A stretch of DNA of 64,000 nt from positions 6,810,470 to 6,874,469 of the forward strand of contig OZ316897.1 of NCBI GenBank assembly GCA_973895155.1, given 5' to 3'. Position 1 is the first letter of the stretch. Every line of letters begins with the position of its first letter. Position numbers and translations under genes: made by a program. This stretch comes from Marsupella aquatica (Eukaryota; Plantae; Marchantiophyta). This document shows positions 8,218 to 63,633 of this stretch, in pieces. The notes under the pieces were generated by a model. That model worked only from the letters and a program-made list of their open reading frames with translations, ran no database searches and was not told where the DNA came from.

Positions 8218-8220
8218 TGT

Positions 8221-34500: not shown

Positions 34501-36140
34501 TTAAATGAGGAGTTGAAGACGGCCAAGGCCGAGATACTACGGCTTAACGATGAAGTTGAAGACGTATCTCAGGAATTGGAGGAGGGCAAGGATAAGATGA
34601 TTGGGTTGCAGAGGCGTGCCGACAATCAAACGCAGAAATTGAAGAAGTATGCCGAAGCAGGATATGGGTCACCAACTGAAAGGCTTCCCGACAGTAGTAT
34701 GGTAGGCGGAAATATAGTGAAGCCAAAGCCGAAGCCAAGCTCCCTATTGTCAAGCGTGACTGGGGGCAAAGCCATGCAGTTGGTGGCAGACTTGGCAAAG
34801 ACGTTCATGGGGCCAGGCGATAATAAAGTTAAGGCCCTTAAAGCCACTCCGGAGGAAGTCAAGAGCATGGCCGCTCACATTTGTGGTACTGTGGCCCTGA
34901 AGGCAGCGGTGGTAGAGGTAAGTATTGCGGATCAACTTGGAGCTGCGGTAACAGGTTTAGATGATGATACTACTTCTATGGACGCACAGAACGTGAAACC
35001 GTGGGTTACTGAGACCGAGCGCATCGGGGAAAAGGCTTGGATTGAGGAAGTTAAGGCAAAGGCTCTCCAAGCCGTTTCCCAGGAGGATGCCAATGTAGAT
35101 GCCGATGCCAAGACCGAGGCCGGGGCCGGCAAACCAGAAGCCGAAGTCGAGGAAGCCGAAGGGGTCAGGCCGGGGCCGATGGCAGGAGAAGGTGCAGAGT
35201 CGGAAGATTCGGACTTACCCCCGGTCATCTGACAATTAAAGAGGGCCAGTCATCGGTTGGAAGGAGGACGTAGCAGCAGGAGAAGGGCTTGGGCCAGAAG
35301 GGCGCGGCCGTTGTAGGATGGGATAGGGCAAGTAGCACCCTGTCGGTTTAGGTAGTAGTAGATGCTCGTTTCACACAGGGTTCCGGGCTATTCAAGTTTT
35401 TAGGTGATAGTTTTTTGGTAGGATTATCGCGGTGGAAGGCCGTGTGTGGTGGTTAGGATTTCCGTTTGTTTTTTCCTGAATGCGCTGCAAGGATAAAAAC
35501 CTGGGCAGCGTGGCTTCGGGGGCTTTTTCTTAGTCAAGGCTTTAGTGTTAATCTGTATTGTTGTGAGCACAGGAAGCTCTCGGCTAAATCTAGACCGCAG
35601 GGTATCAGTAAACCACCAGTTCCCTTGGATTTCTGAGCAATTGTTTGAATTGAGTTGGCCTCGTTGCATAGTTCGCAGATTCTTGCCTTCCAAGAAATTG
35701 AGTGTTATGATATCTGTTGCTTGATCAATTTGAGTCAGACAGGGTGAACTGTTGAGCAAAATACAATCGCATTGTCTTGATTGGAGACTGCCCAATCAAA
35801 CTCTGAGAGAAAAGTGAGGATTGAGAGTGTTAGTCGGTGAAGTGTGGGTTGAGTCAGTCTGAAAAAGACCTTCAACCAGCTTAAGAAATTAAGCCGTAGA
35901 GGTACATTCCGGGGGTGGAATACAAATATACCTGAAGAAGTTAAAGCGGAATTAGGTGTCTCAGTTGTGCACAATTCACAAGCCCAGTGAAAGAATCGGT
36001 CCGGTAAGTGTGGATCGAAGGAGAGTATCGCGTTTCCAAGCCGAATAGCTGCCATAAGGCAAGAGGACGGACATAAACAAGTGGTTTATGATCGGTTGAG
36101 GGTAGTTCTCGGGGTTAGAGGTCTTGGGAAACGTGCCACA
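31505..36140 (+). mobile_element. Solo giant LTR, family B (4636 bp)
   Basis: TGTGATG...GCCACA termini with TSD CCCCC on both sides; encodes a diverged homologue of the family-A LTR protein. Confidence 0.9.
31855..35232 (+). pseudogene. Family-B LTR-encoded protein with three in-frame stops
   Basis: ORFs 31768..31965, 31981..34065 and 34252..35232 share one frame. FRSFPGPSTKNGFFRNQCTNPHIGQLIDFLRVTLHC is conserved with family A. Confidence 0.85.
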
Positions 36141-43700: not shown

Positions 43701-43998
43701 GCTTGAGAACTACATACAGCAGAATGGATGACGGCAACATTCAATGCTTCACTTCAAGAAAAATTCTTCAAACATACATACCTGTAGCTCTGCTTGTAGA
43801 TGCCTGTGTAGGGACTGCACTCTGGAATTGTTGTGACCCTGGACCACCTGTCCAGCCTAGTACAGGGGCCGGATGATGTCACTTTCTAGGTATGTGGCTG
43901 CAAACATATGTACTGAAAACGTAGTACAAACTATAGGAAAACATATGAACATTCACCAACATACCTGGCCCCCTTCCGTACTGCATCTGCATAGGGGC
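40748..43998 (-). mobile_element. CACTA element 3 (same family as CACTA-1, inverted); interrupted by the gypsy element at 43999
   Basis: CACTAGAAGTATCCG at 40748 with GTGACT subterminal repeats; ~43260-43998 is the reverse complement of ~16071-16812. Confidence 0.8.
41603..43740 (-). pseudogene. CACTA-3 accessory gene exons (TnpA/Ptta-like and Tnp1-like domain)
   Basis: ORFs 43459..43740, 43092..43475, 42463..42708 and 41603..42451; homologous to the CACTA-1 and CACTA-2 accessory exons. Confidence 0.7.
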
Positions 43999-46900
43999 TG
44001 TGGTGCGTCCCATGGCTCCCTAAACCCAAGAAACCCCCCAGCTCAAGCCGATTCCCGCGGGTTTCGCGCTTGGCGAGGCCGTTTCCACGGCTTAGCGACA
44101 TGGGACGCTGCTAACCTTCTACTACTACTATTAACATTTTACACACATATACTGGACAGATCCTTCATCGGGTCATGAGATACGTAGCCGGCCTAATCTA
44201 GGCCTTCCCCTGTCTTCCCCTCCGTCTTGTTAGGTATGTTTGGATTCCGCCGCCGGAATGATCCCCAATAGGCTTGGTTAAGCCGCTAAGACCTCTCTCA
44301 GCTCGACACATCCAACTCTCACTCCCTTGCTTACTTTCCTTCCTTCTGGTTGATGTGGGCACTCTTCACACAAGTTAATGCGACACACAAATAGCAAAAT
44401 GACTCATTCTGACTGAGTCATACCATGCACTTGCCATACAAACAGTACATCTCATACACAAGTTCTGCGAACTAAGCCGTGAGGCCAACTCTATTCAGCT
44501 CTTAGGCATGAGGAAACATGAATATACACAAGGGTCATTGTATGACTAACCGAGAGCTTCTCGTACTACTTGATCCCAGCCCGGCTGGTGCAAACTAAAA
44601 ACTTGCTAAAGAAGAGGCCCTGAGCTCCCCGCTGCCCAGGTACTTATCCTGGTAGTGGATCCGCCATTCTTTGCATCGTAAGCCTAATCTACTTAACAGT
44701 AATCTACTTGCCCGAATCTACCTATGTACAGCAAGGCAGGAGCACAAGTGTTGCTCCTACCAGTGGGACCGCAATCCCACTAAGCTAAGTGTCAGGGCCG
44801 CTCCTGGTTCTGATCCTAATCCTAAACGTGGAGATCCGCGCCCGCCCTGCCCACTCACGCCTCCTCCCTCCACGTCCGCCCTCCCTAAAAGGAACGACGC
44901 CCTTGCACCGTCACGACATCGGTGGTGGATCCTTAATGGACGCCCCCAACGCTTCCTCCTCAGCCACTGCCGTAGGCTCATTCCCTGACAGATTACCTGC
45001 CCTTGACTGAGTCAACTCTCCATCGGCCTGACTGGGTCCACCATCGGCGTCGGCATCGGCTCGGGAATGGGTTACGGCCTCAGCCTCGGCTACGGTCTCC
45101 CCGGCTTGCTCAAGAGGCGGATCTGGAATACCGGCCTCATTACTGAGTAGTTCGGCTTGGGCCGCACCACCCCCACCTGTGATGATAGCGGGATATATTG
45201 CTGTATTCATGCCGGAGGATGGTGCTGGTTCTACCTCTTTGGTCACCATGGCTTGTGGAGTCGGATTACTCCTTGACCCTGAAGGTTTCCGCTTTTTCTT
45301 CTTTTCTGGTTCGGCAGCTGGTCCCTTCCCCTTCCCACTTACTTCCGGCACTGGTGCAGTTGGCGCGGATTTTTCTTCGGCTAGTACCACTCCTGGTAAC
45401 TTGGTTGCCCCAATTGGAGTTGGGCCTGATGAAGACAAGCACTTAAATACTGCGGCTTGTTTCTTCAGCCGCTCCATTTGGTTGTCGGCCCGCCGCTGGA
45501 GGTTCTCCATCTTCCTCGTGATTTCCTCCAACTCCTCCTGGGTCTCATCCAGGTCCTTGCGTGCCTCCTCTAGTTCCTTCTGGGCTTCCTCCCGTTCTTG
45601 TTTCAAGGTAGTCCTCTCCTCCTGGGTTGCTCTTAGCTCCTTGTCGAGCTCTGCAATGATGATAGACTCCATCTGGTTCATCTTGGCGTAAGTCTGTTCG
45701 AGCATCTCGTCCTTCTCCCTTAGGTCGGCCTTGAAGCTGGCCGTCAGGGACGCAAGCTCCTGCTGCAGCACCATAATCCCTTGATAGGATTTCCCTAACT
45801 CGGCCTCCTTCTGCTCAAGGGCTCCGCGGATTTTCTCGAGCTCCCCTTTCAATGCCCATTCCTTTCTTTGGGTCTCCGCCATGGCCCGGCTGTTGGCTGT
45901 TATGTGGGCCTCCTCTGTATTCTTCAGCTCTTGCTTCCACTTCTCCCTCTCTTTGATTGTGTCGGCCAACTCTCCCTGCGTCTGAATCAGTTTATCCTTG
46001 ATATTCTGATTATCAGCCTGCGCGGTGTCCAACTGCCCCTGCATGATGTTCAGCTCATGTCGTTTAATCCGCAGTTCATCTTGGGCTTTCTTGGCCGCCC
46101 TTAGATCTTCAATCTCGGCTTCCATCCTCCTAAGCCGCCGAATGACCTCGTCCTTCTTGCTTCTCTCTAAAGCCACCGCTTCTTCTAATTGGTGCTTCTC
46201 CAACTGCTCCCTATGGAAAAAGGGTCCTACCTCCAACTCCTCTCCAAAGATGCCGAGCGCAAGTTCCCCACACATCTCACCATACTCCATGGCTCTATTC
46301 TTAGCGTAGGTGGAGTAAGTAGAAGTGATCGGCATCGCCCATCGCGGCCTCTGCTCCCAAGCCGTCTTGCGGATCTCTTCAATTGTGGCTAGAGGTTTGC
46401 TTCCTTTTTTGGCTAGCCGCCTGATGTCCTCCGGCCAATCTCCTCCTGGTAAATCCTTTTCCTTAGCCAGGGCTGCCTCCTCTTCCTGCTTGATTCGCTC
46501 CTGAAATTCCTGCACCGTCTGTTTTATGCCGTCGAAGCTCGGGGGAGCAACATCTGGTGGGGAGACTCAGGGCTACTCTGCTGGTTGGGGTCCCCTCGCA
46601 CTACCCTTGGAAGTGTGGGGACAAACCGGCCACAGGTCCTTACTCCTGGAACGTGATGGTCCGACCCATAGCCGGAATTATCATGGCTGCAGTCCTCCAC
46701 TGCCTCCTCTACCTCTTGGACGTCCGGCTTCTCCCTCTCCTCTTCGTCGGTACGAGCTTCAGGCAATTCTGCGTCAGATTCGGAGCTTGAGGTTCCCACG
46801 TACATTCGAACACCTGGCTTGGATTCCGGCCTGATTCTCTCCTTGTCTCCAGCAAAGGGGTTTTCTCTTGTGAGCCGGTGTAGGCCTACCTCTGTAGTAG

Positions 46901-48660
46901 TGTCCTGCATTGTTGCCGTTGCCATTGTTGTTGCCGATGCCGATTTCTTTTCTTTCTCCAGTAGTTTCAGCAGACTCTGCATGCCTGGTTGCTGCATCGG
47001 CAAGTCCTCCTTCCTGGGCCTAAACACCTGCTCGATCGTAGGGCTAACAGGTGGTTGAGGCTTCTGAGCCAACGGCCTCGGCGTTGGAGCTTCCTCGGGT
47101 GCCCTTACCTGCAGGGGAAGTACCGGGGCAAAAGTCTGACCTCTGGCATACCGGCACAACAACGGCATGTGATAGCCAAGCCGCGACACGCTCCCCATGC
47201 CGATTACCTGCTGCTCCTCCTTTAAGATCTTCTTCAATTGGTTGAGGAGGTACCCGTTGTAGTCCCAGCTTGGGTCTGGCCTTTCTGCCAGATAGACCTG
47301 TGCCTTGCCGATCTCTGCCCTCGGCAAGTTACAATGCATGGTCACCCGCAAGAAGTCGATCATCTCTCCTATGTGCGGGTTGGTGCAGGTGTTCCGGAAG
47401 AAGCCATTCTTCGTTGATGGCCCAGGGAACGACCGGAACTCCTTGTCAGGCAAGGTCTTCCTGGTATCAACTTTGGTCTTATTGCCTATCGGCAAGCCAA
47501 ACACTTCGGCAATTACCTTGAGAGTAAGATAGAAATCCTTCCCATATATCCTCGTGCAATTGGTCTCGGGTTCCCATGACCCCACGAATTCTAATAGGTC
47601 TGACTCCGGTACCTCCGGCTTCAGCCATGGTAATCTTACAAAGGCCTCTAAGCCGGATCCGGCCATGAAGCCTTGGTACTTCTTGGTCTGCATGGCCGTG
47701 AAGCATGCATCCTCCTCCCGTGCAAAATGTAGTTGCACCTCCACCGGTAGGGTTGCCGCCCAGCCCTTCCAGGTGTCATCCCTGGTTGGAATGGCCTTGA
47801 TGGGATCGACCTCCTCCTCTTCGGCTTCTCCCTGCCTCCTCCTCTGCTGCTCGGCTGGCTTCTTTGGTGCCGCCGACCTCGTTCTTTTTGCCGGGGTGGC
47901 TTCATCGTTGACGGCTCCCTTCCTCTTCATCTCTGCTGCCGTGGAGGTTTCTCCTAGCACCGTTGCCTGGGTCCACCTTTCCGTGCTACCCTTTAATTCC
48001 CAGTGTATGTCGTTGCAGTTCTTGATGGCCTCTCGGATGCCAACGACGCTGTCTTTGCAAAACAGAAGATCGTCGAGTTGATTGGAAGTAGGCGTCCATA
48101 GGAACTCGTCCTTGATGAGTTCGCCTCCTAAGAAAGCCGTCTTCTGCAGCTCCCACAATTGAGCGAGCTCCTGCCGTTCTCGAGCTGCCCTTTCTGATTC
48201 CTCGTCCTCGTAAGTCTTGATGTACTCAGTTGCCCGTTTGAACAGGCATCCCCAGAAATGTGCCGCTTGATTGACGTTGCTCATACCCTCCTTAGGTCGA
48301 TCGTCGGTATCTACTCTCTCCCCGAGTGCTTGCCTAAGTAGCTGACAGTAGTTGGCCTCCCGTAGTCGTCTGCCTAGTTCGTGCTCGCAAATGAGCCACC
48401 ATCTCCTGCAAGCGCTCCTTACCCCTCTCCTCTGCCGGTCCTTCTTCCCGTTGATCCTTCCTAGCCGCCGACGCTTAACGCGCCCTAACCCTAATCGGGT
48501 TTTCACCCTCAGCGTCCTTACCTCCGGCCTCGGCCCGGGTTCCATGGTTGCCCCTAATTGTTTATATTTTCCTTGTTTTGTCCCTATACTAAGGTGTTCC
48601 TAGGGTGCCTTCCTGCTTTACCCACTTAACTGGCCGAGTGATTCCTGTCTAGGCATCACA
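43999..48660 (-). repeat. 3' LTR (4662 bp)
   Basis: Starts TGTGATG directly after the PPT and ends CCACA at 43999. Its end matches the 5' LTR at 63638-64000. Confidence 0.95.
44911..48545 (-). pseudogene. LTR-encoded protein in the 3' LTR, with one frameshift near 46560
   Basis: ORFs 46524..48545 and 44911..46515; a G run is one base shorter than in the intact copies. Confidence 0.85.
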
Positions 48661-51264
48661 TAGCTCCCCACTGAATTGTGAAGCGTCCTCGCGAACAACT
48701 TCATCTTCGTCCATATAGTATTTCTTGAGGCGGTCATAATGGATGCGAACTGGATATACCTCTCCCATAATGTTGGCCAATTGTACGGAGCCATTGGGGA
48801 ACATCATGGTTACTCTAAAGGGTCCTAACCAGCGAGTGTAAAGCTTTCCTGGAAACCTACTATACCTACTGTCATAAAGTAGCACAAGATCACCGGTATG
48901 AATACTAACTACTTTCAACTTTTTATCATACTGCTGCTTCATGATATTCTGTCTATATTCTACTCTCTCGGCTGAAATCATTCTCGCTTCCTCTAAAGCT
49001 TCTAACCTATATTCTCGCTCCTTTAGGCTCTCCTCCGCTGAGGCTCTTTCCTCAATTGTAACTTGAAATGTCGGTATCTCAAGTTGCATGGGTACCAGGG
49101 CTTCTTGTCCAAAGGTTAAGAAGAAGGGTGTATGACCGGTAGTGGATTTATAGGCAAGATTGTAAGCAAAAACAGCAGCAAACAATTTATCATCCCAATC
49201 AAGTTTGTTCTGAGCTACTGTTTTGTTCAATATCTTTCCTATAATTCTGTTTGCTCGTTCTGTCAACCCGTTTGCCTTTGGATGGTAGGGAGTAGTAGGC
49301 CTATGTTTAACTAAATACTGCTCATTTAAATGACTAATTATATCATTCAAAAAATGGGTTCCTCTATCACTAACTAATTCTAGGGGTGCTCCATACCTGG
49401 TGAAGATCTGCTCATACATGAATCTAGCCGTAGTAATTGCATCATCCTTCGTTGTTGGTCTGGCCTCTACCCATTTAGTTGCATAATCCGTAGCCAGGAT
49501 TATGTACTTGTTCCGTCGAGGGTGGGTCAGTGGTTTCAGAGGTCCAATGTAATCAATACCCCACTTCTCGAATGGTGCCAGAGGTAGAATAGGGTGCAGT
49601 GGATGCCTGGTGGACGCCCTTGGTCCTCCCGCTCGTTGACAAGGATCGCATTGTTTGATAAACTGATAGACATCTTTGTGCAAGGTGGGCCACCAGTAAC
49701 CGGCATTTAATATCTTCTTAGACGTGGTTACTGGGGCAAAATGTCCTCCGGCCTCCTCTCCATGCATGGCCCGTAGGACTCGTTTTACCTCTCTCTTTTC
49801 CAAACATCTTTGAATCGTGCCGTTGATTCCATGCTTGTGCAGTATGCCTTTAATGCACTGATATTGTCTGACCTTCCGCACAAAGACTGCGGCTTGCTCT
49901 CGGCTTAATCCTGGCTGTAATCTGGAAGTGCTGAGAAATTGTAAAATCTCAGGGTACCATGTACCAGCTATTTCCACAATGAATAGCTCCTCGTCGGGGA
50001 ATCGATCATCGATGCAATCTGTGGCAGGTTTACCTGTGATCCTTGAAAAGAAGTCGGCATTGGCATGTAACTTTCCCGGCTTGATCCTCAGCTCATAGTC
50101 AAACTCCTGTAATAGCAAAATCCATCTTGCTACTCTACCTGTAAGGTCCGGCTTATTGACTAGGTACTTCAAACTTTCATGATCGGTATGAAAGATTACC
50201 TTGTACCCTAGTAAATAATGCCTAAACTTTTTACAAGAATAAATGACTCCTAATGCTTCTCTCTCTGTGGTGGAGTAGTTCCGTTCGGCATCGGCAAGCT
50301 GACGGCTTGCGAAGTATATGGGATGGTCCCTTCCTTGTCCATCCAACTGACTTAGTACTGAGCCAATACAGAAGCCCGAGACATCTACAAAAACATGAAA
50401 ATCTTTGTTCCAGTCCGGTGCTATCATGACTGGGGCCTCTACTAACATCTGCTTCAATTCTACCACCGTTGTGACTCGTTCGGGTGTGGGTTCGAAGTCT
50501 GCTCCTGCCTTGAGCATGTTGGTTAATGGTAAAGCTAGCTTGGCAAAATCCTTGATGAACCGGCGATAGTAACCAATGCATCCCAAGAAGGATCTTACAT
50601 CCTTTATGTTCTTAGGTTGCATGATATCTAGCCATACTGCTAGCTTACCTTTGTCAATCTCAATGCCCTTCCTTGATACCTTGTGACCTAGTAGCACCCC
50701 CTCGGTTACTGCAAAGAAACATTTATCTGGGTGTAACTTGAGACCCACCTCTCTACATCTCATGAAGGTTTTCCTGAGGTATTTAGCATGTTTCGATGCC
50801 TTCCCGAATACTGCAAAGTCGTCAATGAAGATTTCCATGAACTTTCTCAAGTAATCATGAAAAATGTTCACCATTAATCGTTGGAACATAGCTGGTGCGT
50901 TGCAGAGTCCAAACGACATACGATTGAAGACATAGATCCCCCATTCCGTGATGAAGGCCGTCTTGATTTGGTCTTCCTGCCGAATCCTGATTTGGTTATA
51001 ACCAGAGTATCCATCCATGAATGAATATAGTTCATGACTGGCTACCATGTCTAGTACCATATCAGTAAACGGTAAAGGAAAATGGTCTTTTAATGTTGCT
51101 TCATTCAGCTTCCTGTAATCCTGACAAACCCGGATCTTGGGTTTACCATCGGGTCCAGCTTTCTTGGGAACTATCATAATTGGAGACACCCAGTCTGAAT
51201 GCAGGACTGGAGTGATGAATCCAGCTTCCACTAGTTTGTCGATTTCTGTTTTGACCAGCAGGGA
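48649..51264 (-). CDS. pol: pol, 3' part: RT, RNaseH, integrase
   Basis: RVCQDYRKLN, DGYSGYNQI, FIDD, DVSG..YFASR..EREAL, HHCC (H..GGH..CDPC), WGIDYIGP, SDRGTHF, GLTER, WLGPF. Confidence 0.97.
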   Translation of the reverse strand, partial: SLLVKTEIDKLVEAGFITPVLHSDWVSPIMIVPKKAGPDGKPKIRVCQDYRKLNEATLKDHFPLPFTDMVLDMVASHELYSFMDGYSGYNQIRIRQEDQIKTAFITEWGIYVFNRMSFGLCNAPAMFQRLMVNIFHDYLRKFMEIFIDDFAVFGKASKHAKYLRKTFMRCREVGLKLHPDKCFFAVTEGVLLGHKVSRKGIEIDKGKLAVWLDIMQPKNIKDVRSFLGCIGYYRRFIKDFAKLALPLTNMLKAGADFEPTPERVTTVVELKQMLVEAPVMIAPDWNKDFHVFVDVSGFCIGSVLSQLDGQGRDHPIYFASRQLADAERNYSTTEREALGVIYSCKKFRHYLLGYKVIFHTDHESLKYLVNKPDLTGRVARWILLLQEFDYELRIKPGKLHANADFFSRITGKPATDCIDDRFPDEELFIVEIAGTWYPEILQFLSTSRLQPGLSREQAAVFVRKVRQYQCIKGILHKHGINGTIQRCLEKREVKRVLRAMHGEEAGGHFAPVTTSKKILNAGYWWPTLHKDVYQFIKQCDPCQRAGGPRASTRHPLHPILPLAPFEKWGIDYIGPLKPLTHPRRNKYIILATDYATKWVEARPTTKDDAITTARFMYEQIFTRYGAPLELVSDRGTHFLNDIISHLNEQYLVKHRPTTPYHPKANGLTERANRIIGKILNKTVAQNKLDWDDKLFAAVFAYNLAYKSTTGHTPFFLTFGQEALVPMQLEIPTFQVTIEERASAEESLKEREYRLEALEEARMISAERVEYRQNIMKQQYDKKLKVVSIHTGDLVLLYDSRYSRFPGKLYTRWLGPFRVTMMFPNGSVQLANIMGEVYPVRIHYDRLKKYYMDEDEVVREDASQFSGELCDA
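48661..48672 (-). promoter_or_regulatory. Polypurine tract
   Basis: AGTGGGGAGCTA immediately before the TG of the 3' LTR. Confidence 0.8.
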
Positions 51265-54200
51265 TGTGATGCCTAGACAGGAATCACTCGGCCGGTTAAG
51301 TGGGTAAAGCAGGAAGGCACCCTAGGAACACCTTAGTATAGGGACAAAACAAGGAAAATATAAACAATTAGGGGCAACCATGGAACCCGGGCAGAGGCCG
51401 GAGGTAAGGCTGAGGGTGAAAACCCGATTAGGGTTAGGGCGCGTTAAGCATCGGCGGCTAGGAAGGATCAACGGGAAGAAGGACCGGCAGAGGAGAGGGG
51501 TAAGGAGCGCTTGTAGGAGATGGTGGCTCATTTGCGAGCACGAACTAGGCAGACGACTACGGGAGGCCAACTATTGTCAGCTGCTTAGGCAAGCACTCGG
51601 GGAGAGAGTAGATACCGACGATCGACCTAAGGAGGGTATGAGCAACGTCAATCAAGCGGCACATTTCTGGGGATGCCTGTTCGAACGGGCAACTGAGTAC
51701 ATCAAGACTTACGAGGACGAGGAATCAGAAAGGGCAGCTCGAGAACGGCAGGAGCTCGCTCGATTGTGGGAGCTGCAGAAGACGGCTTTCTTAGGAGGCG
51801 AACTCATCAAGGACGAGTTCCTGTGGACGCCTACTTCCAATCAACTCGACGATCTTTTGTTTTGCAAAGACAGCGTCGTCGGCATCCGAGAGGCCATCAA
51901 GAACTGCAACGACATACACTGGGAATTAAAGGGTAGCACGGAAAGGTGGACCCAGGCAACGGTGCTAGGAGAAACCTCCACGGCAGCAGAGATGAAGAGG
52001 AAGGGGGCCGTCAACGATGAAGCCACCCCGGCAAAAAGAACGAGGTCGGCGGCACCAAAGAGGCCAGCCGAGCAGCAGAGCAGGAGGCAGGGAGAAGCCG
52101 AAGAGGAGGAGGTCGATCCCATCAAGGCCATTCCAACCAGGGATGACACCTGGAAGGGCTGGGCGGCAACCCTACCGGTGGAGGTGCAACTACATTTTGC
52201 ACGGGAGGAGGATGCATGCTTTACGGCCATGCAGACCAAGAAGTACCAAGGCTTCATGGCCGGATCCGGCTTGGAGGCCTTTGTAAGATTACCATGGCTG
52301 AAGCCGGAGGTACCGGAGTCAGACCTATTAGAATTCGTGGGGTCATGGGAACCCGAGACCAATTGCACGAGGATATATGGGAAGGATTTCTATCTTACTC
52401 CCAAGGTAATTGCCGAAGTGTTTGGCCTGCCGATAGGCAATAAGACCAAAGTTGATACCAGGAAGACCTTGCCTGACAAGGAGTTCCGGTCGTTCCCCGG
52501 GCCATCAACGAAGAATGGCTTCTTCCGGAACACCTGCACCAACCCGCACATAGGAGAGATGATCGACTTCTTGCGGGTGACCATGCATTGTAACTTGCCG
52601 AGGGCAGAGATCGGCAAGGCACAGGTCTATCTGGCAGAAAGGCCAGACCCAAGCCGGGACTACAACGGGTACCTCCTCAACCAATTGAAGAAGATCTTAA
52701 AGGAGGAGCAGCAGGTAATCGGCAAGGGGAGCGTGTCGCGGCTTGGCTATCACATGCCGCTGTTGTGCCGGTATGCCAGAGGTCAGACTTTTGCCCCGGT
52801 ACTTCCCCTGCAGGTAAGGGCACCGGAGGAAGCTCCAACGCCGAGGCCGTTGGCTGAGAAGCCTCAACCACCTGTTAGTCCTATGATCAAGCAGGTGTTT
52901 AGGCCCAGGAAGGAAGACTTGCCGATGCAGCAACCAGGCATGCAGAGTCTGCTGAAACTACTGGAGAAAGAAAAGAAATCGGCATCGGCAACAACAACGG
53001 CAACGGCAACAATGCAGGACACTACTACAGAGGTAGGCCTACACCGGCTCACAAGAGAAAACCCCTTTGCTGGAGACAAGGAGAGAATCAGGCCAGAATC
53101 CAAGCCAGGTGTTCGAATGTACGTGGAAACCTCAAGCTCCGAATCTGAGGCAGAATTGCCTGAAGCTCCTACCGACGAAGAGGAGAGGGAGAAGCCGGAC
53201 GTCCAAGAGGTAGAGGAGGCAGTGGAGGACTGCAGCCATGATAATTCCGGCTATGGGTCGGACCATCACGTTCCAGGAGTAAGGACCTATGGCCGGTTTG
53301 TCCCCACACTTCCAAGGGTAGTGCGAGGGGACCCCAACCAGCAGAGTAGCCCTGAGTCTCCCCCACCAGATGTTGCTCCCCCGAGCTTCGACGACATAAA
53401 ACAGACGGTGCAGGAATTTCAGGAGCGAATCAAGCAGGAGGAAGAGGCCGCCCTGGCTAAGGAAAAGGATTTACCAGGAGGAGATTGGCCGGAGGACATC
53501 AGGCGGCTAGCCGAAAAAGGAAGCAAACCTCTAGCCACGATTGAAGAGATCCACAGGATGGCTTGGGAGCAGAGGCCACGATGGGCGATGCCGATCACTT
53601 CTACTTACTCCACCTACGCTAAGAATAGAGCCATGGAGTATGGTGAGATGTGTGGGGAACTTGCACTCGGCATCTTTGGAGAGGAGTTGGAGGTAGGACC
53701 CTTTTTCCATAGGGAGCAGTTGGAGAAGCACCAATTAGAAGAAGCGGTGGCTTTAGAGAGAAGCAAGAAGGACGAGGTCATTCGACGGCTTAGGAGGATG
53801 GAAGCCGAGATTGAAGATCTAAGGGCGGCCAAGAAAGCCCAAGATGAACTGCGGATTAAACGACATGAGCTGAACATCATGCAGGGGCAGTTGGACACCG
53901 CGCAGGCTGATAATCAGAATATCAAGGATAAACTGACTCAGACGCAGGAAGAGTTGGCCGACACGATCAAAGAGAGGGAGAAGTGGAAGCAAGAGCTGAA
54001 GAATACAGAGGAGGCCCACATAACAGCCAACAGCCGGGCCATGGCGGAGACCCAAAGAAAGGAATGGGCGTTGAAAGGGGAGCTCGAGAAAATCCGCGGA
54101 GCCCTTGAGCAGAAGGAGGTCGAGTTAGGGAAATCCTATCAAGGGATTATGGCGCTGCAGCAGGAGCTTGCGTCCCTGACGGCCAGCTTCAAGGCCGACC

Positions 54201-55924
54201 TAAGGGAGAAGGACGAGATGCTCGAACAGACTTACGCCAAGATGAACCAGATGGAGTCTGTCATCATTGCAGAGCTCGACAAGGAGCTAAGAGCAACCCG
54301 GGAGGAGAGGGCTACCTTGAAGAAGGAATTGGAGGAAGCCCACAGGGAGCAGGAGGAGGCCAAAAACAAGCTGGAGGGGGCACGTAAGGACCTGGATGAA
54401 ACCCAAGAGGAGTTGGAGGAAATCACGAGGAAGATGGAGAACCTACAGCGGCGGGCCGACAACCAAACAGAGCGGCTGAAAAAACAAGCCGCAATATTTA
54501 AATGCTTAGCTGCAGCAGGTCCATCTCCCGTTGGGACAAACCAGTTACCAGGGGTGGTAATTGCCGAAGGACAAGCCGCGCCAACTGCACCAGTGCCGGA
54601 ATTAAGTGGGAAGGGGAAGGGACCAGCTGCCGAGCCACCAACGAAGAAGAAGCGGAAACCTTCAGGGTCAAGGAGTAATACGACTTCACAGGCCGTGGTG
54701 ATCAAGGAGGTAGACCCAACACCGACCCCAGACAGGGTCACGGCTAAGGATCCAACTACCCTAGGGGAAGGGGAGGCCGAAGCCGAGGGAGTGGCTGAAG
54801 CCGAAGCCGTGGGAGTGGCTGAGGCCGAAGCCGTGGGTATTGCCGAGGCCGGTGTCGAGGCTGAAGCCGAGGGTGGACCCAGTCAGGCCGATGGAGAGTT
54901 GACTCGGTCAAGGGCAGGTAATCTGTCAGTAGGTGAAACTACGGCAGTGGCTGAGGAGGAAGCGTTGGGGGCGTCCATTAAGGATCCACCACCGGTGTCG
55001 TGACGGTGCAAGGGCGCCATTCCTTTTAGGGAGGGCGGACGTGGAGGGAGGAGGCGTGAGTGGGCAGGGCGGGCGCGGATCTCCACGTTTAGGATTAGGA
55101 TCAGAACCAGGAGCGGCCCTGACACTTAGCTTAGTGGGATTGCGGTCCCACTGGTAGGAGCAACACTTGTGCTCCTGCCTTGCTGTACATAGGTAGATTC
55201 GGGCAAGTAGATTACTGTTAAGTAGATTAGGCTTACGATGCAAAGAATGGCGGATCCACTACCAGGATAAGTACCTGGGCAGCGGGGAGCTCAGGGCCTC
55301 TTCTTTAGCAAGTTTTTAGTTTGCACCAGCCGGGCTGGGATCAAGTAGTACGAGAAGCTCTCGGTTAGTCATACAGTGACCCTTGTGTATATTCATGTTT
55401 CCTCATGCCTAAGAGCTGAATAGAGTTGGCCTCACGGCTTAGTTCGCAGAACTTGTGTATGAGATGTACTGTTTGTATGGCAAGTGCAGGGTATGACTCA
55501 GTCAGAATGAGTCATTTTGCTATTTGTGTGTCGCATTAACTTGTGTGAAGAGTGCCCACATCAACAGAATGAAGGAAAGTAAGCAGGGGAGTGAGAGTTG
55601 GATGTGTCGAGCTGAGAGAGGTCTTAGCGGCTTAACCAAGCCTATTGGGGATCATTCCGGTGGCGGAATCCAAACATACCTAACAAGACGGAGGGGAAGA
55701 CAGGGGAAGACAGGGGAAGGCCTATATTAGGCCGGCTACGTATCTCATGACCCGATGAAGGATCTGTCCAGTATATGTGTGTAAAATGTTAATAGTAGTA
55801 GTAGAAGGTTAGCAGCGTCCCATGCCGCTAAGCCGCGGAAACGGCCTCGCCAAGCACGAAACCTGCGGGAATCGGCTTGAGCTGGGGGGTTTCTTGGGTT
55901 TAGGGAGCCATGGGACGCACCACA
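51265..55924 (+). mobile_element. Solo family-A LTR (4660 bp) inserted antisense into pol of its own family
   Basis: TG...CA termini; TSD AGGGA at 51260-51264 and 55925-55929. Excision restores MNPKYSLLVKTEIDKLVEAGFI. Confidence 0.97.
51380..55003 (+). CDS. Intact LTR-encoded protein (1207 aa; probable true start at 51638, MSNVNQ)
   Basis: Uninterrupted ORF covering 78% of the LTR, with a globular N-terminal domain, an acidic linker and a ~300-aa coiled coil. Confidence 0.88.
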   Translation: MEPGQRPEVRLRVKTRLGLGRVKHRRLGRINGKKDRQRRGVRSACRRWWLICEHELGRRLREANYCQLLRQALGERVDTDDRPKEGMSNVNQAAHFWGCLFERATEYIKTYEDEESERAARERQELARLWELQKTAFLGGELIKDEFLWTPTSNQLDDLLFCKDSVVGIREAIKNCNDIHWELKGSTERWTQATVLGETSTAAEMKRKGAVNDEATPAKRTRSAAPKRPAEQQSRRQGEAEEEEVDPIKAIPTRDDTWKGWAATLPVEVQLHFAREEDACFTAMQTKKYQGFMAGSGLEAFVRLPWLKPEVPESDLLEFVGSWEPETNCTRIYGKDFYLTPKVIAEVFGLPIGNKTKVDTRKTLPDKEFRSFPGPSTKNGFFRNTCTNPHIGEMIDFLRVTMHCNLPRAEIGKAQVYLAERPDPSRDYNGYLLNQLKKILKEEQQVIGKGSVSRLGYHMPLLCRYARGQTFAPVLPLQVRAPEEAPTPRPLAEKPQPPVSPMIKQVFRPRKEDLPMQQPGMQSLLKLLEKEKKSASATTTATATMQDTTTEVGLHRLTRENPFAGDKERIRPESKPGVRMYVETSSSESEAELPEAPTDEEEREKPDVQEVEEAVEDCSHDNSGYGSDHHVPGVRTYGRFVPTLPRVVRGDPNQQSSPESPPPDVAPPSFDDIKQTVQEFQERIKQEEEAALAKEKDLPGGDWPEDIRRLAEKGSKPLATIEEIHRMAWEQRPRWAMPITSTYSTYAKNRAMEYGEMCGELALGIFGEELEVGPFFHREQLEKHQLEEAVALERSKKDEVIRRLRRMEAEIEDLRAAKKAQDELRIKRHELNIMQGQLDTAQADNQNIKDKLTQTQEELADTIKEREKWKQELKNTEEAHITANSRAMAETQRKEWALKGELEKIRGALEQKEVELGKSYQGIMALQQELASLTASFKADLREKDEMLEQTYAKMNQMESVIIAELDKELRATREERATLKKELEEAHREQEEAKNKLEGARKDLDETQEELEEITRKMENLQRRADNQTERLKKQAAIFKCLAAAGPSPVGTNQLPGVVIAEGQAAPTAPVPELSGKGKGPAAEPPTKKKRKPSGSRSNTTSQAVVIKEVDPTPTPDRVTAKDPTTLGEGEAEAEGVAEAEAVGVAEAEAVGIAEAGVEAEAEGGPSQADGELTRSRAGNLSVGETTAVAEEEALGASIKDPPPVS

Positions 55925-57874
55925 AGGGAATACTTCGGGTTCATCCTTCGAATTGGTTGTCGAAATGATTTGGCTCCTAACATGAGATCAATTCGATGTT
56001 CCCCTAGTGTTGGATCTACTCCCTTTAGATCTTGGTGACTCCATGCAAACACATCCTGAAATTCAATCAATAAGTCACTGATCTCTTTCTCGAGCTCAGG
56101 TGCTAGGTTTCTCCCTAAGTTCAGTTCTCTTCCCTCTCCTAAGTCGAGCTTCCGATATTGCCGTGCTTGGATCATATTAATCTGCTTCTTCAAATTCGGG
56201 TCCAGTTCGGCTTCCAGTCTCTCTAATCTCATACCTCCATAAACTGGAATCTCGGCTGGACTAGCCGAGTCGGTCCCGTCCTTGGTGTCCATAGATTGTC
56301 CCCTTGCCGGTCTATTCGGTTTTGAATTGGTGGTCGGCTCCCCTTCCTGCCTTGGCTCTGGATTGTGTCTGTCCATCTCATCCACCTCTTGTTCCTGAGA
56401 GTCAGGCCGTTGTGCTCTCTCGGCTTCTAATAGGGCCTCAATTTGTTCTGCCCTCGTAATCGGCTTGTATGCCGATCCCTTGGTATTTAATTCCTTGCCG
56501 ATGATTGATGGCGTTGTGAACCCTGCCGGCTCTGCCACAACACCTGCAGAAAATCCACTGTCCCTGCTACTGCTCCCCACTTAGCCGTTTCATCCAATTG
56601 GTCTACATCCTTTACTTCCTCCGGAATTGCAGCTAAAAAGGTGGATTCTATTGTAAAGCAGTCCTCGACCTCTTCGTCTTCTGCTTCCAAGTCACCTTCC
56701 ATTGGTTCTTGCCATAATCCACTGGGGGGTACCTCTGGTCCAAAGACACTTTCTTCGGTTAGGTTAGTGAGGCATTCTAACCAACGTACTTCATCGGCTG
56801 ACTCCAGTCCACTGTCATACCCATCTACTTCCCTTATGCTTTTCCTACGGTCATCCTTAGTGTCCCAGGATACCGTGATAGAGGGGGTCCCGAAAGTGAA
56901 CTGTTTTTTACCCCAATCTTCTATTACCTCGGCTAGGTACAGCCATGGCCTACCAATCAATAGCCGGAATGACGTAGGATTTACCAGCTTCATTACTACA
57001 TAGTTAATGCTAAAGAAGATACCTCCTATCTCTGTCTTGATGCCGGTTAACACTCCCGTGGGAATGACCTGATATCCATTGGCCATGTTCAACACTCTTC
57101 CAGTCATCTCCGGTGTTAGACCCCACCCTTTTGTTGTTGAATCAATCATAATACATACCCCTGATCCTCCATCGATGGGTACCCGTAGTAATAATTCTCC
57201 TTGAATCATTAATGGTAATGCTGGGGCTCCTTGATCTTCTTCTATCATTAGTACGTCGGATCTGGTTGCTACTTGGGTAACCTCGGCTTGCCGAGAATAG
57301 CCTTCCTTAATTGCTTCCGGAAGTATGGGCTATTTTTCAATAGTTGAACTACTGTTGCCGAGACTCTAGATTCTAGTACATCTTTAGCCAGGTCATAGGG
57401 AACAATCGGCTTCTCCTCTGGTGGTGTTTCCGTCTTGGATTCGGCCAGTTTTGCCACGCTAGTCTCCACAGCTGTTGGGTCTTCCGAAGCAAACAATGCT
57501 TTTGCTCGTTTTACATCCTTGGCAATGGCTTCGGTATTCTCCAGGGTTTCTAATTCTCTTAGTTGTTCCTTAACACTAGCCGTAACAGAGGGGTAGAACA
57601 ACTTAGGATGATCTCGATTGAAGTCGCTATCTTGTGAAGGATTGGTTTCACTGGTGGGCTCATGGCTTACCTGTATTGCCGGAGCCCTCCCTTCTCCTTC
57701 TGTTGATGTTGACGAAGAGTCGATCTTTTTCTCCGTAACCTTCCCTTTATTTTTGGCCAGCCCATCCCACCTTTCCTTCCTTCTGGTAGATCGAGTAGAG
57801 ACCCGGTAGCAATCATGATCTAAATCCTCCTCTGAGAAGGTTGATAGGGCTTGTAGTTTGCCATAGAGAACCAA
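55925..57874 (-). pseudogene. pol: pol, 5' part: gag-pro linker, aspartic protease and start of RT (frameshifted)
   Basis: VSTRS linker; IDGGSGVCIM; LLIGRPWL; EFQDVFAWSHQDLKGVDP..EHRIDL. The three ORFs are in different frames. Confidence 0.9.
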
Positions 57875-58760
57875 AAATCACATTTTAAAGTCTCCAAACT
57901 CGGTATTCGTTCCCTTTAAGAACAAGATGGGGTTGGTTTGATGTAATAAACTAAAAACAAAGCTTTAAGCTCTTGTGTCACACATAGTAATCAATCTTGA
58001 CTACTTTAATCAGGTACTTTGAAGATCGCTCCACAGCGGTGAGTAGTTTTTGATGATAACTCAACATCAGATAACCTTCAATTAAGCAAAAGATTGCAAT
58101 TAACAAAACACAAGGAAAAATCTCTCAGAGTATGCTTAAGGGAGTCTGGAATAGACCAAGGTTACTCCTTAGACATAAGTAATAATGGAATGACTTTAAG
58201 GGAATCCAAATCCACACGGCTTTTCAGATCTAAACTGCATACTAGAGTATCCTTTTAAAATGCTGGCAACATGTCTTGACCTTTCTTCCTAAGTGATACT
58301 TAGTCAAGATCTAAAAGGATAAATACTTCAGCATTTAGATGGTACTAAGCAACATGAAGGTGAAAACATCATTTCCAATGTAACTTAAACTCAATGAGTT
58401 AACTCTAAGAACTTGTGAGATTACAATGTGTCACCAAAGCGGAATCTGACATTATAATTCACGAGATTCATAACTGAGGTTTTACTTCAAGTATTTGGGT
58501 TCCAAAATACAAGAAGGAGGTAAGTCTCTCCAATTATTAAGTCTGATTTAGAACTCGTAGGTTCAGAATCAATAGACTTAACAAAAGGGAGGCAAAAATG
58601 CAGAACTTAACCATCTCTCTACACTAGGGGAAGAGGTATAAATAGTGATGAACTACAGAATAAGAGGTCACAGGGTCGAAGAGACATGCCTCTTCATAAC
58701 CCTCAAAAAGTCAAAACGACGATTCAATAAGTGGAAAGCCGGAAAAAATGGCTAAGTATG

Positions 58761-58831
58761 AACTCTTAAACTCTTAAAAACTTAAACTCTTAAAAACGTA
58801 AAAACTTAAACTCTTAAACTCTTAATTTCGG
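58761..58831. repeat. (AACTCTTA)n-type array downstream of the extra ORF
   Basis: Read directly; ends AAACTCTTAATTTCGG, like the array at 61649-61828. Confidence 0.8.
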
Positions 58832-59030
58832 TATACTAAAAATTGAGTAGATTCAACTATTTTTAACTTTCTACTCCTGATTCAAAAAACTCTGAAATTT
58901 TTCCAGTAGGGTTTCCTAGGTACAGACTACAGCCTAAAGAAGTCTCATAGCTTTTAAAGCTCTACAACACATTTAGAAAAATTGGTAAAAGTACTATACT
59001 TTTCAATACTAGCTAAAAAGATAGTCTCCT

Positions 59031-61445
59031 TCAAGCTTGTTGTCGAATATCATCGAGTTCGAGCAGCTCCACGTAGGTGACAATCCGATTCTGTGTTACC
59101 TCCATCAGCTCAGTCTGACGTGGTGATCCTCGAGAGTAGGGTAGGCACCTTAGTTGTCTCTCAGGATACATCAAAGGCATTCGCTTCATCAAATAACAGG
59201 AATCTATACGAAGAGCTTCTCTGTATATCCCTAGTACATCATAGTTGTTGCAGGTGGCAGCATATACTTGGGGATAGTGATGCAGAAACTCATCACTATT
59301 CATCATCCTGGAATAGAAGGGTCGAAGTCTCCATCTGACATCCTTAAAATATCGGTTGAAATGAGCCAGGGTCTGAGTAGTGACATTATTCCAGATCCTC
59401 TGTTTCTCAGCTAGGGAACTGGTGGAAACAAGGACAACCTTCGGCTCTCGTGGAATGTAAGAGTTCTGGTGAGAAGTGGATTTCTTACTCTGCATGAGAA
59501 AAGAAATCACAAAGTCCAGAGCGTAAGCTGCAAAATTCCCGAAATAGGCCAAAACCAAATCTGGATCTTCTACTTCTACATCCCCTTGAAGTAGCATCAT
59601 AGCAAGGATGGGTCGGAAGTAGATTGAGTCAGTCCAGAACTCATCAAATTGAGCCATCTCCACTCTTGAAGTTCCGAAACTTCTGAGGTCAAATATGTAA
59701 CTGGCCTCAGTCTTCTTAAGGTAGTAGTATCTCCAAAACTCTCCAATTGGGGGTCTGTTGGCCTGCATTATCTTACAAGTCTCCACGTACCTCTGCACTT
59801 GAGACTCTGGATGTCGTGTATATCTTTTTTCAATGACAGAATACCGGGGTGTTTGAGTAGAGGAGGTGACAACTGCCACTAAATTTGGATCAGATCTTAA
59901 GGTAGTGTCAACATCCTCAAATCCTTGCCTTGGTGACGACTCGACAGAGTTGTCATAAGATCGGATGGAATCAAAATCAGAGGGTGGATCAGAATCCTCA
60001 GGAAGATCCTGTCTAACAGAAGGATGTTCATACTGTGGTTGGGTATAAATAGGTCCCTCGGTTGGCTCATAATTGGAATCTGGACTATAAATGCAGTCAC
60101 CCGGGTTGGAAGGGCCTTTGAATTCTGTGTACTTCGGAATTAAGTCACTAACCACAGAGATTATCTCCTCAGGTTCACACTGAAGCAATTCCAGTAGGTC
60201 AGTTACAATTGCAACACAACTTGTGTTTCCTATCCTTGAGACAGGTTCACTTGGCTCTGGAGGTAGATTCTGTGGGACAGTAGGAGTGAGAGCAACAAAT
60301 TCTTCTGGTGCTGACCTCTCAATGGGAGAAGCGGTCCTGACAGGGGTTAGCTGATCTGGAAATGGAGAGGATAAGCTAACTGCCTCGGATCTCAAATCAC
60401 AGACAACATCGTAGAGTTCAACATCACTGCAACCGAAGAGAGAGATTAACTTATCAATAAGCTGCTGATTTGACTCTGCTTTCGAAAAAGGGGGCATGGT
60501 GACTCCTCGTATGGCAGTAATAGTTGGTTCAACAACGACTTCTTGTTGCTCAGGAAAAATCTCGTCTCCTTCAGCTTCAAGTTGATCTGCTCCACTGATT
60601 TCTCTTGGAGAGTATAAAATGACCTCCATGTTGTGTTCAGGGGGAAATTCCGAACCACCTATCGAGACATCCTCCATATTAACATCGATGTCCATATTAA
60701 CATCCTGATCAGTGGAATTCAGCAGAATGTCCTGTTCTGATTCTGCTACACTAATTTCTTCCTCAATGTCCAACTCGATCAGAAGTAATCCCCTTTCTGT
60801 TTTCTCCTCCGGATGTAAACAGTCATGTGCTTGATACAGCTGAGATAGATAGACTTGTAGACAAGTAGGTCTGCCTGCCTTCATACTTCTCACCTGATCG
60901 TTCATCACATTGAAAAGTAACAACGCCCAATTTGCTTGGATAGCTCCACTGTGAGAAGCTACGATAGTATTCGCCAATGCCACAGGGCAGATAGTTGGTC
61001 TCTTCGGATGGAGAATGGGCACTAGAAATTCTAAAAGAATCCTCAAATCCGGATAGGTACATTGTGTCACATTCCAGCCATTGGTAGGATGGCGAATCCC
61101 TGAAAAGTAAGGAGTGGACAAATCTTTTTTCTTTGAATATAATCCTTCTCCATCTAAGGGGCAGCGGAAGGCATGAGCTACTTGCTCAACTGTCCATAAA
61201 CTTGGCCGAGCTCGAATGGTTTGTCGAAATTCAGGGGCAATCAGTGATCCTCTCACAAAATCCTGTAAATAAGAGTCGAGCTCCACATTCCAAGGGATTG
61301 CGAGTAGATGTTCCAATCCGAGCTGCTGTAACGATGTTCTCAAATTTTCACAACTGTCGGGCGCCAAAGGAATTCGAGCGACCACACTCTTAGGAATTGC
61401 CAGAGTTTGAACACGATACTGTGCATCAGCGTCCAAGTCAGCCAT
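59031..61445 (-). CDS. Extra 804-aa ORF between gag and protease
   Basis: Intact ATG-to-stop ORF in the sense orientation of the element. Its N-terminal domain resembles the LTR protein (GL...PW...F...VA..F..P...NGW...C...L.FL). Confidence 0.8.
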   Translation of the reverse strand: MADLDADAQYRVQTLAIPKSVVARIPLAPDSCENLRTSLQQLGLEHLLAIPWNVELDSYLQDFVRGSLIAPEFRQTIRARPSLWTVEQVAHAFRCPLDGEGLYSKKKDLSTPYFSGIRHPTNGWNVTQCTYPDLRILLEFLVPILHPKRPTICPVALANTIVASHSGAIQANWALLLFNVMNDQVRSMKAGRPTCLQVYLSQLYQAHDCLHPEEKTERGLLLIELDIEEEISVAESEQDILLNSTDQDVNMDIDVNMEDVSIGGSEFPPEHNMEVILYSPREISGADQLEAEGDEIFPEQQEVVVEPTITAIRGVTMPPFSKAESNQQLIDKLISLFGCSDVELYDVVCDLRSEAVSLSSPFPDQLTPVRTASPIERSAPEEFVALTPTVPQNLPPEPSEPVSRIGNTSCVAIVTDLLELLQCEPEEIISVVSDLIPKYTEFKGPSNPGDCIYSPDSNYEPTEGPIYTQPQYEHPSVRQDLPEDSDPPSDFDSIRSYDNSVESSPRQGFEDVDTTLRSDPNLVAVVTSSTQTPRYSVIEKRYTRHPESQVQRYVETCKIMQANRPPIGEFWRYYYLKKTEASYIFDLRSFGTSRVEMAQFDEFWTDSIYFRPILAMMLLQGDVEVEDPDLVLAYFGNFAAYALDFVISFLMQSKKSTSHQNSYIPREPKVVLVSTSSLAEKQRIWNNVTTQTLAHFNRYFKDVRWRLRPFYSRMMNSDEFLHHYPQVYAATCNNYDVLGIYREALRIDSCYLMKRMPLMYPERQLRCLPYSRGSPRQTELMEVTQNRIVTYVELLELDDIRQQA

Positions 61446-61648
61446 AGCTCAAATTCTGCTCACTGAGCTGCGCGAAGAATTGTTTGGAGTCGAGAGCGAT
61501 GAAAGATGCAGCGGAAGAGAAGTCAGGAGTGAGCGCCTATGTTCTGGATTCCTCCCCCTTCAAGGCCTGCTCCTCGTTTTGTTGCAAAGTCCCGTTGGAG
61601 TTAGCCGTAGCCTGTCACAATCGCGGGGCTCGCCAGTTCGCAAGTCGC

Positions 61649-61828
61649 AACTCTTAAAGTCGTAAAGTCTTAAAGTAGGGTTTACTCGTAAACCCTTAAA
61701 CTCTTAAACTATTAAACACTTCAACTCTTCAACTCTTCAACTCTTAAACTATTAAAGTAGGGTTTACTCGTAAACCCGTAAACTCTTAAACACTTCAACT
61801 CTTCAACTCTTAAACTCTTAATCTTCGG
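61649..61828. repeat. (AACTCTTA/C)n-type array upstream of the extra ORF
   Basis: Read directly; includes a duplicated TTAAAGTAGGGTTTACTCGTAAACCC block. Confidence 0.8.
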
Positions 61829-61928
61829 CAGAGTTTAGTTTACTCGAGTTATCAGCAAATATAGTTTAACTACTTCAAAAATTTAAAAATTTTCCGGTTT
61901 TCTTCATGACTTTGGAATTACTGCCTAT

Positions 61929-63568
61929 CTACAGGGCTTCGGCCTCATCATCAGATGGTACGAACTCTGCCTCGGCATCCTCTTGCCATCCTAGTTCGAT
62001 GTGGTTGATTTGAACTCCTCCGGGGGTAGTACCTGGCGGTAAGATCTTGATCGGCAAAAGCTTATGATTTGCGGCCAGGCCTGCCAACCAAGTAGGACAT
62101 TGCCCTAGCATATGACCTTCCTGTCGGCATCCCATACATAGCTGAGCTGGTTGTCCATCACCCTGTTTGCGTGCATTCGGGCATTCTCTAGCAAAATGGC
62201 CAGGTTGACCACAATTATAGCACGCCGCAAATCTTTGCACATTCGGCCTAGGAGGTACTAACGGGTTCTGAATAATCCGAGGATACATCTCTCCTGGATT
62301 GTTCCTTAACCCTGACCATAGAGATGCAGGTCTGTTGGATAGGTCTCGTGCTCCAGTCTCACTGATGCCGAAAACACTATCAGCGGCATCTCCTAAAAAG
62401 TACTCTACTTCTCCCTGACATGGTCTGATCTCGGCCACATGCCGAACATGATTAGTATGAAGCTTAGGACACGCATCTTTATGGTGTCCGGTTTTATAAC
62501 ATAAGGCACACCATACAGAGCTATCCTCCTGTACTACCTTCTTCTTCGGTTTTACCTCTGCAATGATAGCCTTAAGTTGCTCGGTAAGGGCTACGATGTT
62601 ATCTGGTGGCTTAGCCTCCAGCTTGACTTTCGTCTTCCCTCTCCTTCTGCCCTTCCTTTTCCTAGTTTTTTCTTCTTCAGAACTAGAAGATGACTCACTC
62701 TTGCTACTCCCACTATCCGAGCTTGACTTATCACTTCTAGACTTCTTAGAATGTTTCTTCTTCTTATCTTTTTTCTTATGGGGTGATCCCTCCTCTCTGA
62801 TGAGGAACTCTCAGACTTAAGCTGTTTCTTCCGGCTTGTGATATCTGCATTAATGTATAATTGAATATCCTTAATTGCTTCGGCTAAAGTCTCCGGGTTC
62901 TCCTTCCTAATTGCAAAACTCATCTTCTGTGGCAAAGCATTCACCAACCATTGAAGTTGCATACCTTCAGATGCATTGGTCTTTGTACGTCTTACCAGTT
63001 TCTGAAAGCGTTGCAAGAACTTCCTGAAGGATTTGTTCTCCTTGAACCGAAGTTGTCCCAACTTCAGCACTGCTAGTGCTGAAGTTCCAATGGGTTGAAA
63101 CTCCTTAACAAAGAGTGTTTTGAAGATATCCCAGATGGCTTGATCTTCCACATCTAATGCTCTATACCAAGGCCTAGCCTCACCCTTGAACAGGCCGGGA
63201 AGAATCTGCATCTTGATGGCCGATTCTCCATTTGCTATAGCGGTTCCCTCGAAATCATCCAACCATTCGTCCGGATCCTCATCTCCTCTCCCATGAAATG
63301 CCTTGTAATGTATGCGCGACCGCTGGCTCAATCTGGTCCCTGGCCTCTCGTCTGGCCGTGCCTCTGGTTCCCCCATGTCGGTTGGAGACTCACTTCTCCT
63401 TACCGACTCTTCTTCTGGTATGTCTTCTTCGACGCCACTTCCAATTTCGGAGCTACCAGCTCTTTCTGCCCCTCTCAGTCGCTGTGTATCATGCCACCCG
63501 GCGAGCTGCTGCAGTCGAGCTCTCTCCCGTTGAATCACTCTTTCTTCCCTCGGCGTAAGGTCAGTCAT
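61929..63568 (-). pseudogene. gag: gag with three CCHC zinc knuckles and one frameshift near 62790
   Basis: FHGRGDEDPDEWL...GEARPWY...WDIFK..F; knuckles CALCYKTGHHKDAC, CYNCGQPGHFAREC and CMGCRQEGHMLGQC. Confidence 0.9.
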
Positions 63569-63615: not shown

Positions 63616-63633
63616 CCCCTCCATCTAGCGCCA
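63616..63633 (-). promoter_or_regulatory. Primer binding site
   Basis: TGGCGCTAGATGGAGGGG, 4 nt after the CA end of the 5' LTR. The cognate tRNA was not identified. Confidence 0.8.

Follow-up and report, generated by a model that had tools for sequence, protein, structure and literature searches.

A solo LTR in the liverwort Marsupella aquatica holds a long protein-coding frame that has been under purifying selection in the replicating lineage of its Ty3/gypsy family, and the core of the encoded protein has a predicted VANC21-like fold. From this structural prediction we consider the chances about even that the LTR carries a selected accessory gene whose VANC21-like protein binds the DNA of its own element and counters silencing. 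All positions refer to the window, the whole stretch of 64,000 nucleotides that was analysed.

The 4.66-kb repeat is the LTR of a Ty3/gypsy retrotransposon

Self-comparison of the window revealed seven pieces of the repeat family of A, given here together with the parts of the host element that A interrupts:

51265–55924, plus strand: solo LTR A, 4660 bp with TG..CA ends, interrupting the RT of the minus-strand host Ty3/gypsy element
48660–43999, minus strand: host 3' LTR (C), the same repeat as A, starting directly after the PPT
64000–63638, minus strand: end of the host 5' LTR (D), its last 363 bp, up to the window edge
12892–8221, minus strand: solo LTR B, its ORF open from Met83, with a stop at codon 36 of the long frame
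14560–12893, minus strand: partial copy B' adjoining B, the first 1668 bp, truncated, with a stop at codon 59
1–1915, plus strand: diverged copy E, of which the window holds the 3' part, with 82% nucleotide identity, followed by no PBS
31505–36140, plus strand: diverged solo LTR F, 4636 bp, TSD CCCCC
48661–48672, minus strand: PPT, abutting the integrase end
63616–63633, minus strand: PBS, beginning TGG, 4 nt past the 5' LTR end
48649–57846, minus strand: host pol, interrupted by LTR A and comprising the protease region, RT, RNase H and integrase
61939–63568, minus strand: host gag with a zinc knuckle, in two frames (Pfam Retrotrans_gag, zf-CCHC)

The repeat starts after the PPT and ends before the PBS around gag-pol; the A-type repeat is therefore a Ty3/gypsy LTR, with A as a solo copy of it. 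The PBS is presumably of the tRNA-Asn type. Pfam matches in host pol comprised RVT_1, RT_RNaseH, Integrase_H2C2 and rve, and the stop codon of the integrase falls within the first 12 nt of LTR C. The two LTRs of the host element differ at 5 of the 363 sites available (98.6% identity), and the flank of C matches another repeat copy at 16071, whose start equals the expected TSD.

Unit A starts with TGTGATG and ends with CACCACA, and is flanked on either side by the TSD AGGGA (51260–51264 and 55925–55929). TG..CA ends with TSDs of 4–6 bp were likewise found for F (CCCCC), for a unit of a second family, G (GGGCT), and for B and B' taken as a pair (8221–14560, minus strand), which has TGCAT on both sides and the three additional bases ACA on the right. 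The empty-site joint 51259>55925 was recovered for A from X1 (three contigs), X3 and X6 (one each), and a near-identical joint from X2, thus in all four runs compared; the contigs spanning this empty site are further copies of the host element, and one of the runs may itself be the source of the window. Together, the PPT, the PBS, the TG..CA ends, the TSD AGGGA and the empty-site joints bear out the LTR identity that the first-pass annotation had proposed for the repeat. All three complete TSD-flanked solo LTRs of the family (A, B, F) contain the whole ORF region, and by this and by LTR replication the host 5' LTR would also hold the gene.

The RT–RNase H region of the host element shares 67–70% identity with sequences of Calypogeia fissa, 56–58% with Riccia sorocarpa and 37–51% with seed plants, the closest named RT being that of Calypogeia fissa (70%). 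Pfam gave no Chromo match, host pol ending where the LTR starts, and the second (archaeal-type) RNase H of the Tat clade was not found in host pol.

The gene within the LTR and its selection

The reading frame of A is laid out as follows:

51380–55003, plus strand: LTR ORF; its first ATG opens a frame of 1207 codons
52142–52828, plus strand: globular core domain with predicted VANC21-like fold, aa 255–483
53777–54660, plus strand: charged, likely coiled-coil region judged from sequence, about aa 800–1045
55004–55924, plus strand: non-coding LTR tail, 921 bp

A gene inside the LTR, as claimed in the first-pass annotation, was confirmed within A, where the 1207 open codons compare with a longest stop-free run of 306 codons (mean 174) in 300 Markov-shuffled LTRs. 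The 3.6-kb frame described earlier is open as such, but the gene is probably shorter. Similarity between A and F starts at Met83, upstream of which F has stops in all three frames, so that the gene probably starts at Met83 (51626) and comprises 1125 aa and 3378 bp, or 72% of the LTR. Likewise, the ORF had been called intact in two copies: from the first ATG to the stop only A is open, one of the four near-identical copies with a 5' part (A, B, B', C), whereas from Met83 both A and B are. The ORF of C carries a frameshift from a 1-bp deletion at codon 661, and that of F, with about 40% amino acid identity to A overall and 65% in the core, has one stop and one frameshift.

Every whole-ORF comparison yielded a dN/dS well below 1, with 0.375 for A–B, 0.33 for A–E, and 0.34 and 0.42 for the two frames of A–C, in keeping with the non-neutral evolution expected earlier. 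The N-terminal part of A–F gave 0.17 and the A–F core a pN of 0.23 at saturated synonymous sites, one A–F segment aligned over only 24 codons being left out; short sub-regions of A–B with few changes gave ratios near or above 1. The non-coding tail diverges by 0.115 between A and E, where the dS of the ORF is 0.47. These data show purifying selection in the replicating lineage, a signal that does not speak for the solo copies. The further idea that the gene is positioned to survive solo-LTR recombination found no support: selection could accrue during full-element replication, and in the solo copy F the ORF is broken by a stop and a frameshift. Within the tail, a TATA-like TATATTA at about 55726 was rejected as a promoter element, being conserved in none of C, E and F.

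Predicted fold and relatives of the protein

Structure prediction of the core was confident and matched VANC21 (PDB 9LNK, 9LNJ) over about 200 residues at a sequence identity of 9–10%, so that the fold prediction suggested at first pass led to a predicted VANC21-like domain. The action in trans proposed at the same time gains plausibility from this predicted fold. The prediction covers the core domain only; aa 83–250 and 690–800 are also conserved between A and F. Coiled-coil Pfam matches to the A ORF were weak and below cut-off, and an NLS-like KKKRK lies at aa 1089.

A search of 1.84 billion representatives with a three-sequence profile retrieved 155 homologue clusters at E ≤ 0.001, as judged by protein sequences alone; four of the 30 clusters looked up carried an organism label, in each case Calypogeia fissa. 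Neither the LTR ORF nor its homologues matched any Pfam family above cut-off, DUF1985 (VANC) included, and none of the 34 homologues scanned had a family at E ≤ 0.001. The plant mobile domain PF10536 had no Pfam match either, the link of the core to PMD running via VANC only. Atlas scores of the LTR ORF to the PF20167 and PF03078 clusters were 0.89 and 0.87, with the lead line at 0.9, and the Athila ORF1/Transposase_32 profile gave a weak match (E 0.014) in one of 78 members. Searching PDB sequences with the profile returned acidic or low-complexity matches only, word-seeded searches restricted to lengths of 663–2113 aa and 1298–3705 aa found no ORF homologues, and none of the 312 pattern matches in a metagenome contig scan was confirmed.

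A second family sharing the core domain

A unit without nucleotide similarity to A or F lies within the same host element:

57852–61933, minus strand: unit G, 4082 bp with TG..CA ends and TSD GGGCT, between host gag and protease
59031–61445, minus strand: G ORF, 805 aa, with the same core domain as the A ORF in N-terminal position
61648–61821, no strand assigned: array of AACTCTTAA-type units, 200–380 bp upstream of the G ORF
58761–58825, no strand assigned: second AACTCTTAA-type array, downstream of the G ORF

The core domain of the G ORF was matched at E 9e-6. Empty-site joints for G were recovered from X1 and X3, two of the four runs, and its end at 61933 meets differing flanks in all four. 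In one of the five flanks listed, a single contig of X4, a minus-strand purine tract and CTA precede the TG at the end of G, like the host PPT; by this one contig, in which no PBS was seen, G would be an LTR whose ORF runs in the sense direction. The second family very likely also has a gene within its LTR. The non-coding parts of G contain AACTCTTAA 11 times, in two arrays on either side of the ORF, against a mean shuffle maximum of 2.7, and these arrays are a candidate binding target of the family G protein. The same search for short-motif arrays gave no significant enrichment in A or F.

Discussion

The sag gene of MMTV, nef of HIV and the accessory genes of foamy viruses lie in U3 and, like the A ORF, are copied with the LTR, but they are much smaller and encode unrelated proteins of animal retroviruses. 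A further likeness is to VANC of the Arabidopsis VANDAL (MuDR) elements, also a TE-encoded accessory gene, with which the predicted fold is shared over about 200 residues. VANC21 is described as binding a motif of 9 bp, which has been amplified to form tandem arrays, and as removing methylation in trans (PMC5735166). In the accounts available, VANC is structurally like MAIN/PMD, gypsy elements encode PMD-A, and PMD-C proteins act against silencing by Polycomb (PMC13547354, bioRxiv 2024.09.27.615353, PMC5418596). The likely coiled-coil region of the A ORF recalls the dimer helix described for VANC21 (PMC13547354), and the tandem short motifs of VANC systems have a candidate counterpart in family G only. 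Unlike VANC, the A ORF lies in a liverwort and inside the LTR of a retrotransposon, not in a VANDAL/MuDR DNA transposon; its core is only 9–10% identical, it lacks a DUF1985 match, and the A and F families are without a motif array.

The extra ORFs described for OTA elements (Athila ORF1/Transposase_32, Ogre and gypsy PMD-A, Retand TRP28) resemble the A ORF as sense ORFs after the integrase, without a transmembrane helix and in a non-chromovirus-like host (PMC6317226, PMC7264820, PMC11963269, PMC5418596, PMC11728184). They are described as sitting in the internal region (PMC6317226, PMC7264820, PMC11963269, PMC11728184), whereas in the family of A the ORF comes after the PPT and so forms part of the LTR. 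In their size of 4–5 kb and frequent solos, the LTRs resemble the giant plant LTRs reported for Ogre (1.9–6.5 kb; PMC6431247) and Retrosat2 (>3.2 kb; PMC3485330); the extra ORFs of those elements are given as internal, while one ORF here fills 59–78% of the LTR.

In the explanation that we prefer, the gene would be the kind of extra ORF that Athila/Tat-like elements usually have on their 3' side. It would have come to lie in U3 because the plus strand is primed from a PPT directly at the integrase end. Through reverse transcription both LTRs would then receive the gene, and recombination to a solo LTR would leave one whole copy. The protein is predicted to be nuclear and to dimerise through the coiled coil; it would bind sequence-specifically to the element's own DNA, with the AACTCTTAA arrays as the candidate target in family G, and act against silencing in trans, keeping the element transcribed. 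Anti-silencing is our best guess because VANC21 demethylates in trans, VANC and PMD are akin, and PMD-C acts against Polycomb. A bolder version, which we hold to be doubtful, would have a bryophyte gypsy lineage carry in the LTR both an anti-silencing gene of the VANC type and the motifs that it targets, each solo forming a self-contained cassette by which the family escapes silencing in trans, and would make the fold an old retrotransposon fold that exists beyond flowering plants and a possible source of host PMDs and VANCs.

It is quite possible, if short of probable, that the VANC/PMD-like gene is real and has another job, such as tuning or repressing LTR transcription, tethering the integration complex or binding element RNA, its place in the LTR being a by-product of the PPT and the solos being silent. 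Extra ORFs of unknown role are described as common in OTA elements (PMC6317226, PMC11963269), fold matches do not give function, the A and F families are without a motif array, and the copies C and F are broken. The sole characterised structural neighbour, however, is an anti-silencing factor, and motif arrays stand on either side of the G gene.

It is very unlikely that the repeat is no LTR but an element of its own, with a single gene and a borrowed integrase. This reading would account for the window's four single units with TSDs (A, B, F, G) beside one full element, whose 5' LTR lies mostly outside (363 bp inside). The same sequence, in direct orientation, stands after the PPT and before the PBS around gag-pol, and long LTRs are expected to yield many solo LTRs. 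The ratio of 2.6:1 reported for Retrosat2 (PMC3485330) is in line with this.

An env-like membrane protein would suit a sense ORF just past the integrase, where env-like ORFs are described in Athila (PMC7264820), but is highly improbable: a hydrophobic helix is absent (maximum 19-residue hydropathy 0.98 in the A ORF and 1.53 in the G ORF), the predicted fold matches a DNA-binding protein, and the core had no match at E ≤ 0.001 in the viral fold library. A neutral, non-functional frame, which would fit the interruption of B, B', C and F by stops or frameshifts and the A–B sub-regions with dN/dS near or above 1, is refuted at the lineage level by the whole-ORF dN/dS, runs against the 155 homologue clusters and the confident predicted fold, and retains next to no probability, though neutrality may still hold for single solos after insertion.

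Non-chromoviruses have already been described with LTRs of around 5 kb and with extra ORFs (PMC6317226, PMC6431247, PMC7264820, PMC11963269, PMC11728184, PMC3485330). Our literature search, confined to main texts and with thin coverage of subscription journals, found no report of a plant LTR holding a whole accessory gene, nor of a VANC-fold protein in an LTR retrotransposon. Sequence-specific anti-silencing proteins have been described for DNA transposons, their occurrence in LTR retrotransposons and the role of the many extra ORFs there being presented as open (PMC12844716, PMC11963269). As a candidate for such a protein in an LTR retrotransposon, the LTR ORF is concrete: the fold of its core is predicted, and family G offers a motif that its protein may bind. 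It challenges the habits of treating solo LTRs as non-coding relics and of looking for extra ORFs between LTRs only. Leftover single LTRs may carry a gene for self-protection. The PMD/VANC fold has so far been described from angiosperms in the sources available (PMC5418596, PMC13547354), and the predicted fold of this liverwort protein bears on its origin.

Insertion targets and other probable transposon remains

The solo LTR B (12892-8221), the diverged solo LTR F (31505-36140, plus strand) and the minus-strand Ty3/gypsy host element have all inserted into pieces of CACTA-like DNA transposons, which we located at four places:

7360-8400, CACTA-like DNA transposon piece
16071-16850, CACTA-like DNA transposon piece
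30948-31580, CACTA-like DNA transposon piece
41603-43998, CACTA-like DNA transposon piece

Among these pieces we observed a weak DUF4216 match at 7381-8397 as well as similar ORF fragments at 16329 and 30948. In the region 20539-28402, both strands carry ORFs, several in all and 170-450 aa long, including a cysteine-rich one at 25050-26363. None of them has a Pfam match, and the region is probably a further degraded DNA transposon.

At 8213-14565, a single TSD pair encloses a partial LTR (first 1668 bp, CA end) and, after it, the full LTR B. This arrangement is consistent with an insertion whose target was an LTR of the same family, with subsequent recombination.

Non-coding parts of the LTR

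Comparing the ORF-bearing solo LTR A with E, the 3' part of a diverged copy, revealed a divergence of 0.115 for the non-coding tail (55004-55924 versus 1024-1915), whereas synonymous sites of the ORF reached 0.47, which may reflect cis constraint or recombination between subfamilies. In the 3' LTR of the host element (43999-48660, minus strand), the tail is less diverged than the 3' end of the ORF.

The telobox-like TTAGG occurs 12 times in the non-coding parts of A (51265-51625 and 55004-55924) and 8 times in those of F, against about 3 expected. As TTAGG was picked post hoc, after inspection of the sequences, it is at most a weak candidate target motif.

In a contig of sequencing run X1, the LTR end (55924) is linked via 9 letters to the PPT position (48661); this joint may represent an internally deleted element or an LTR-LTR junction.

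A second gene-bearing family

57852-61933, minus strand, unit G of a second gene-bearing LTR-like family, with an 805-aa ORF that is flanked by AACTCTTAA arrays

Logan contigs of 3.4-3.9 kb encode 808-aa proteins near-identical to the G product. Near 58637, G contains a TATA-like GGTATAAATAG that faces the ORF in antisense orientation.
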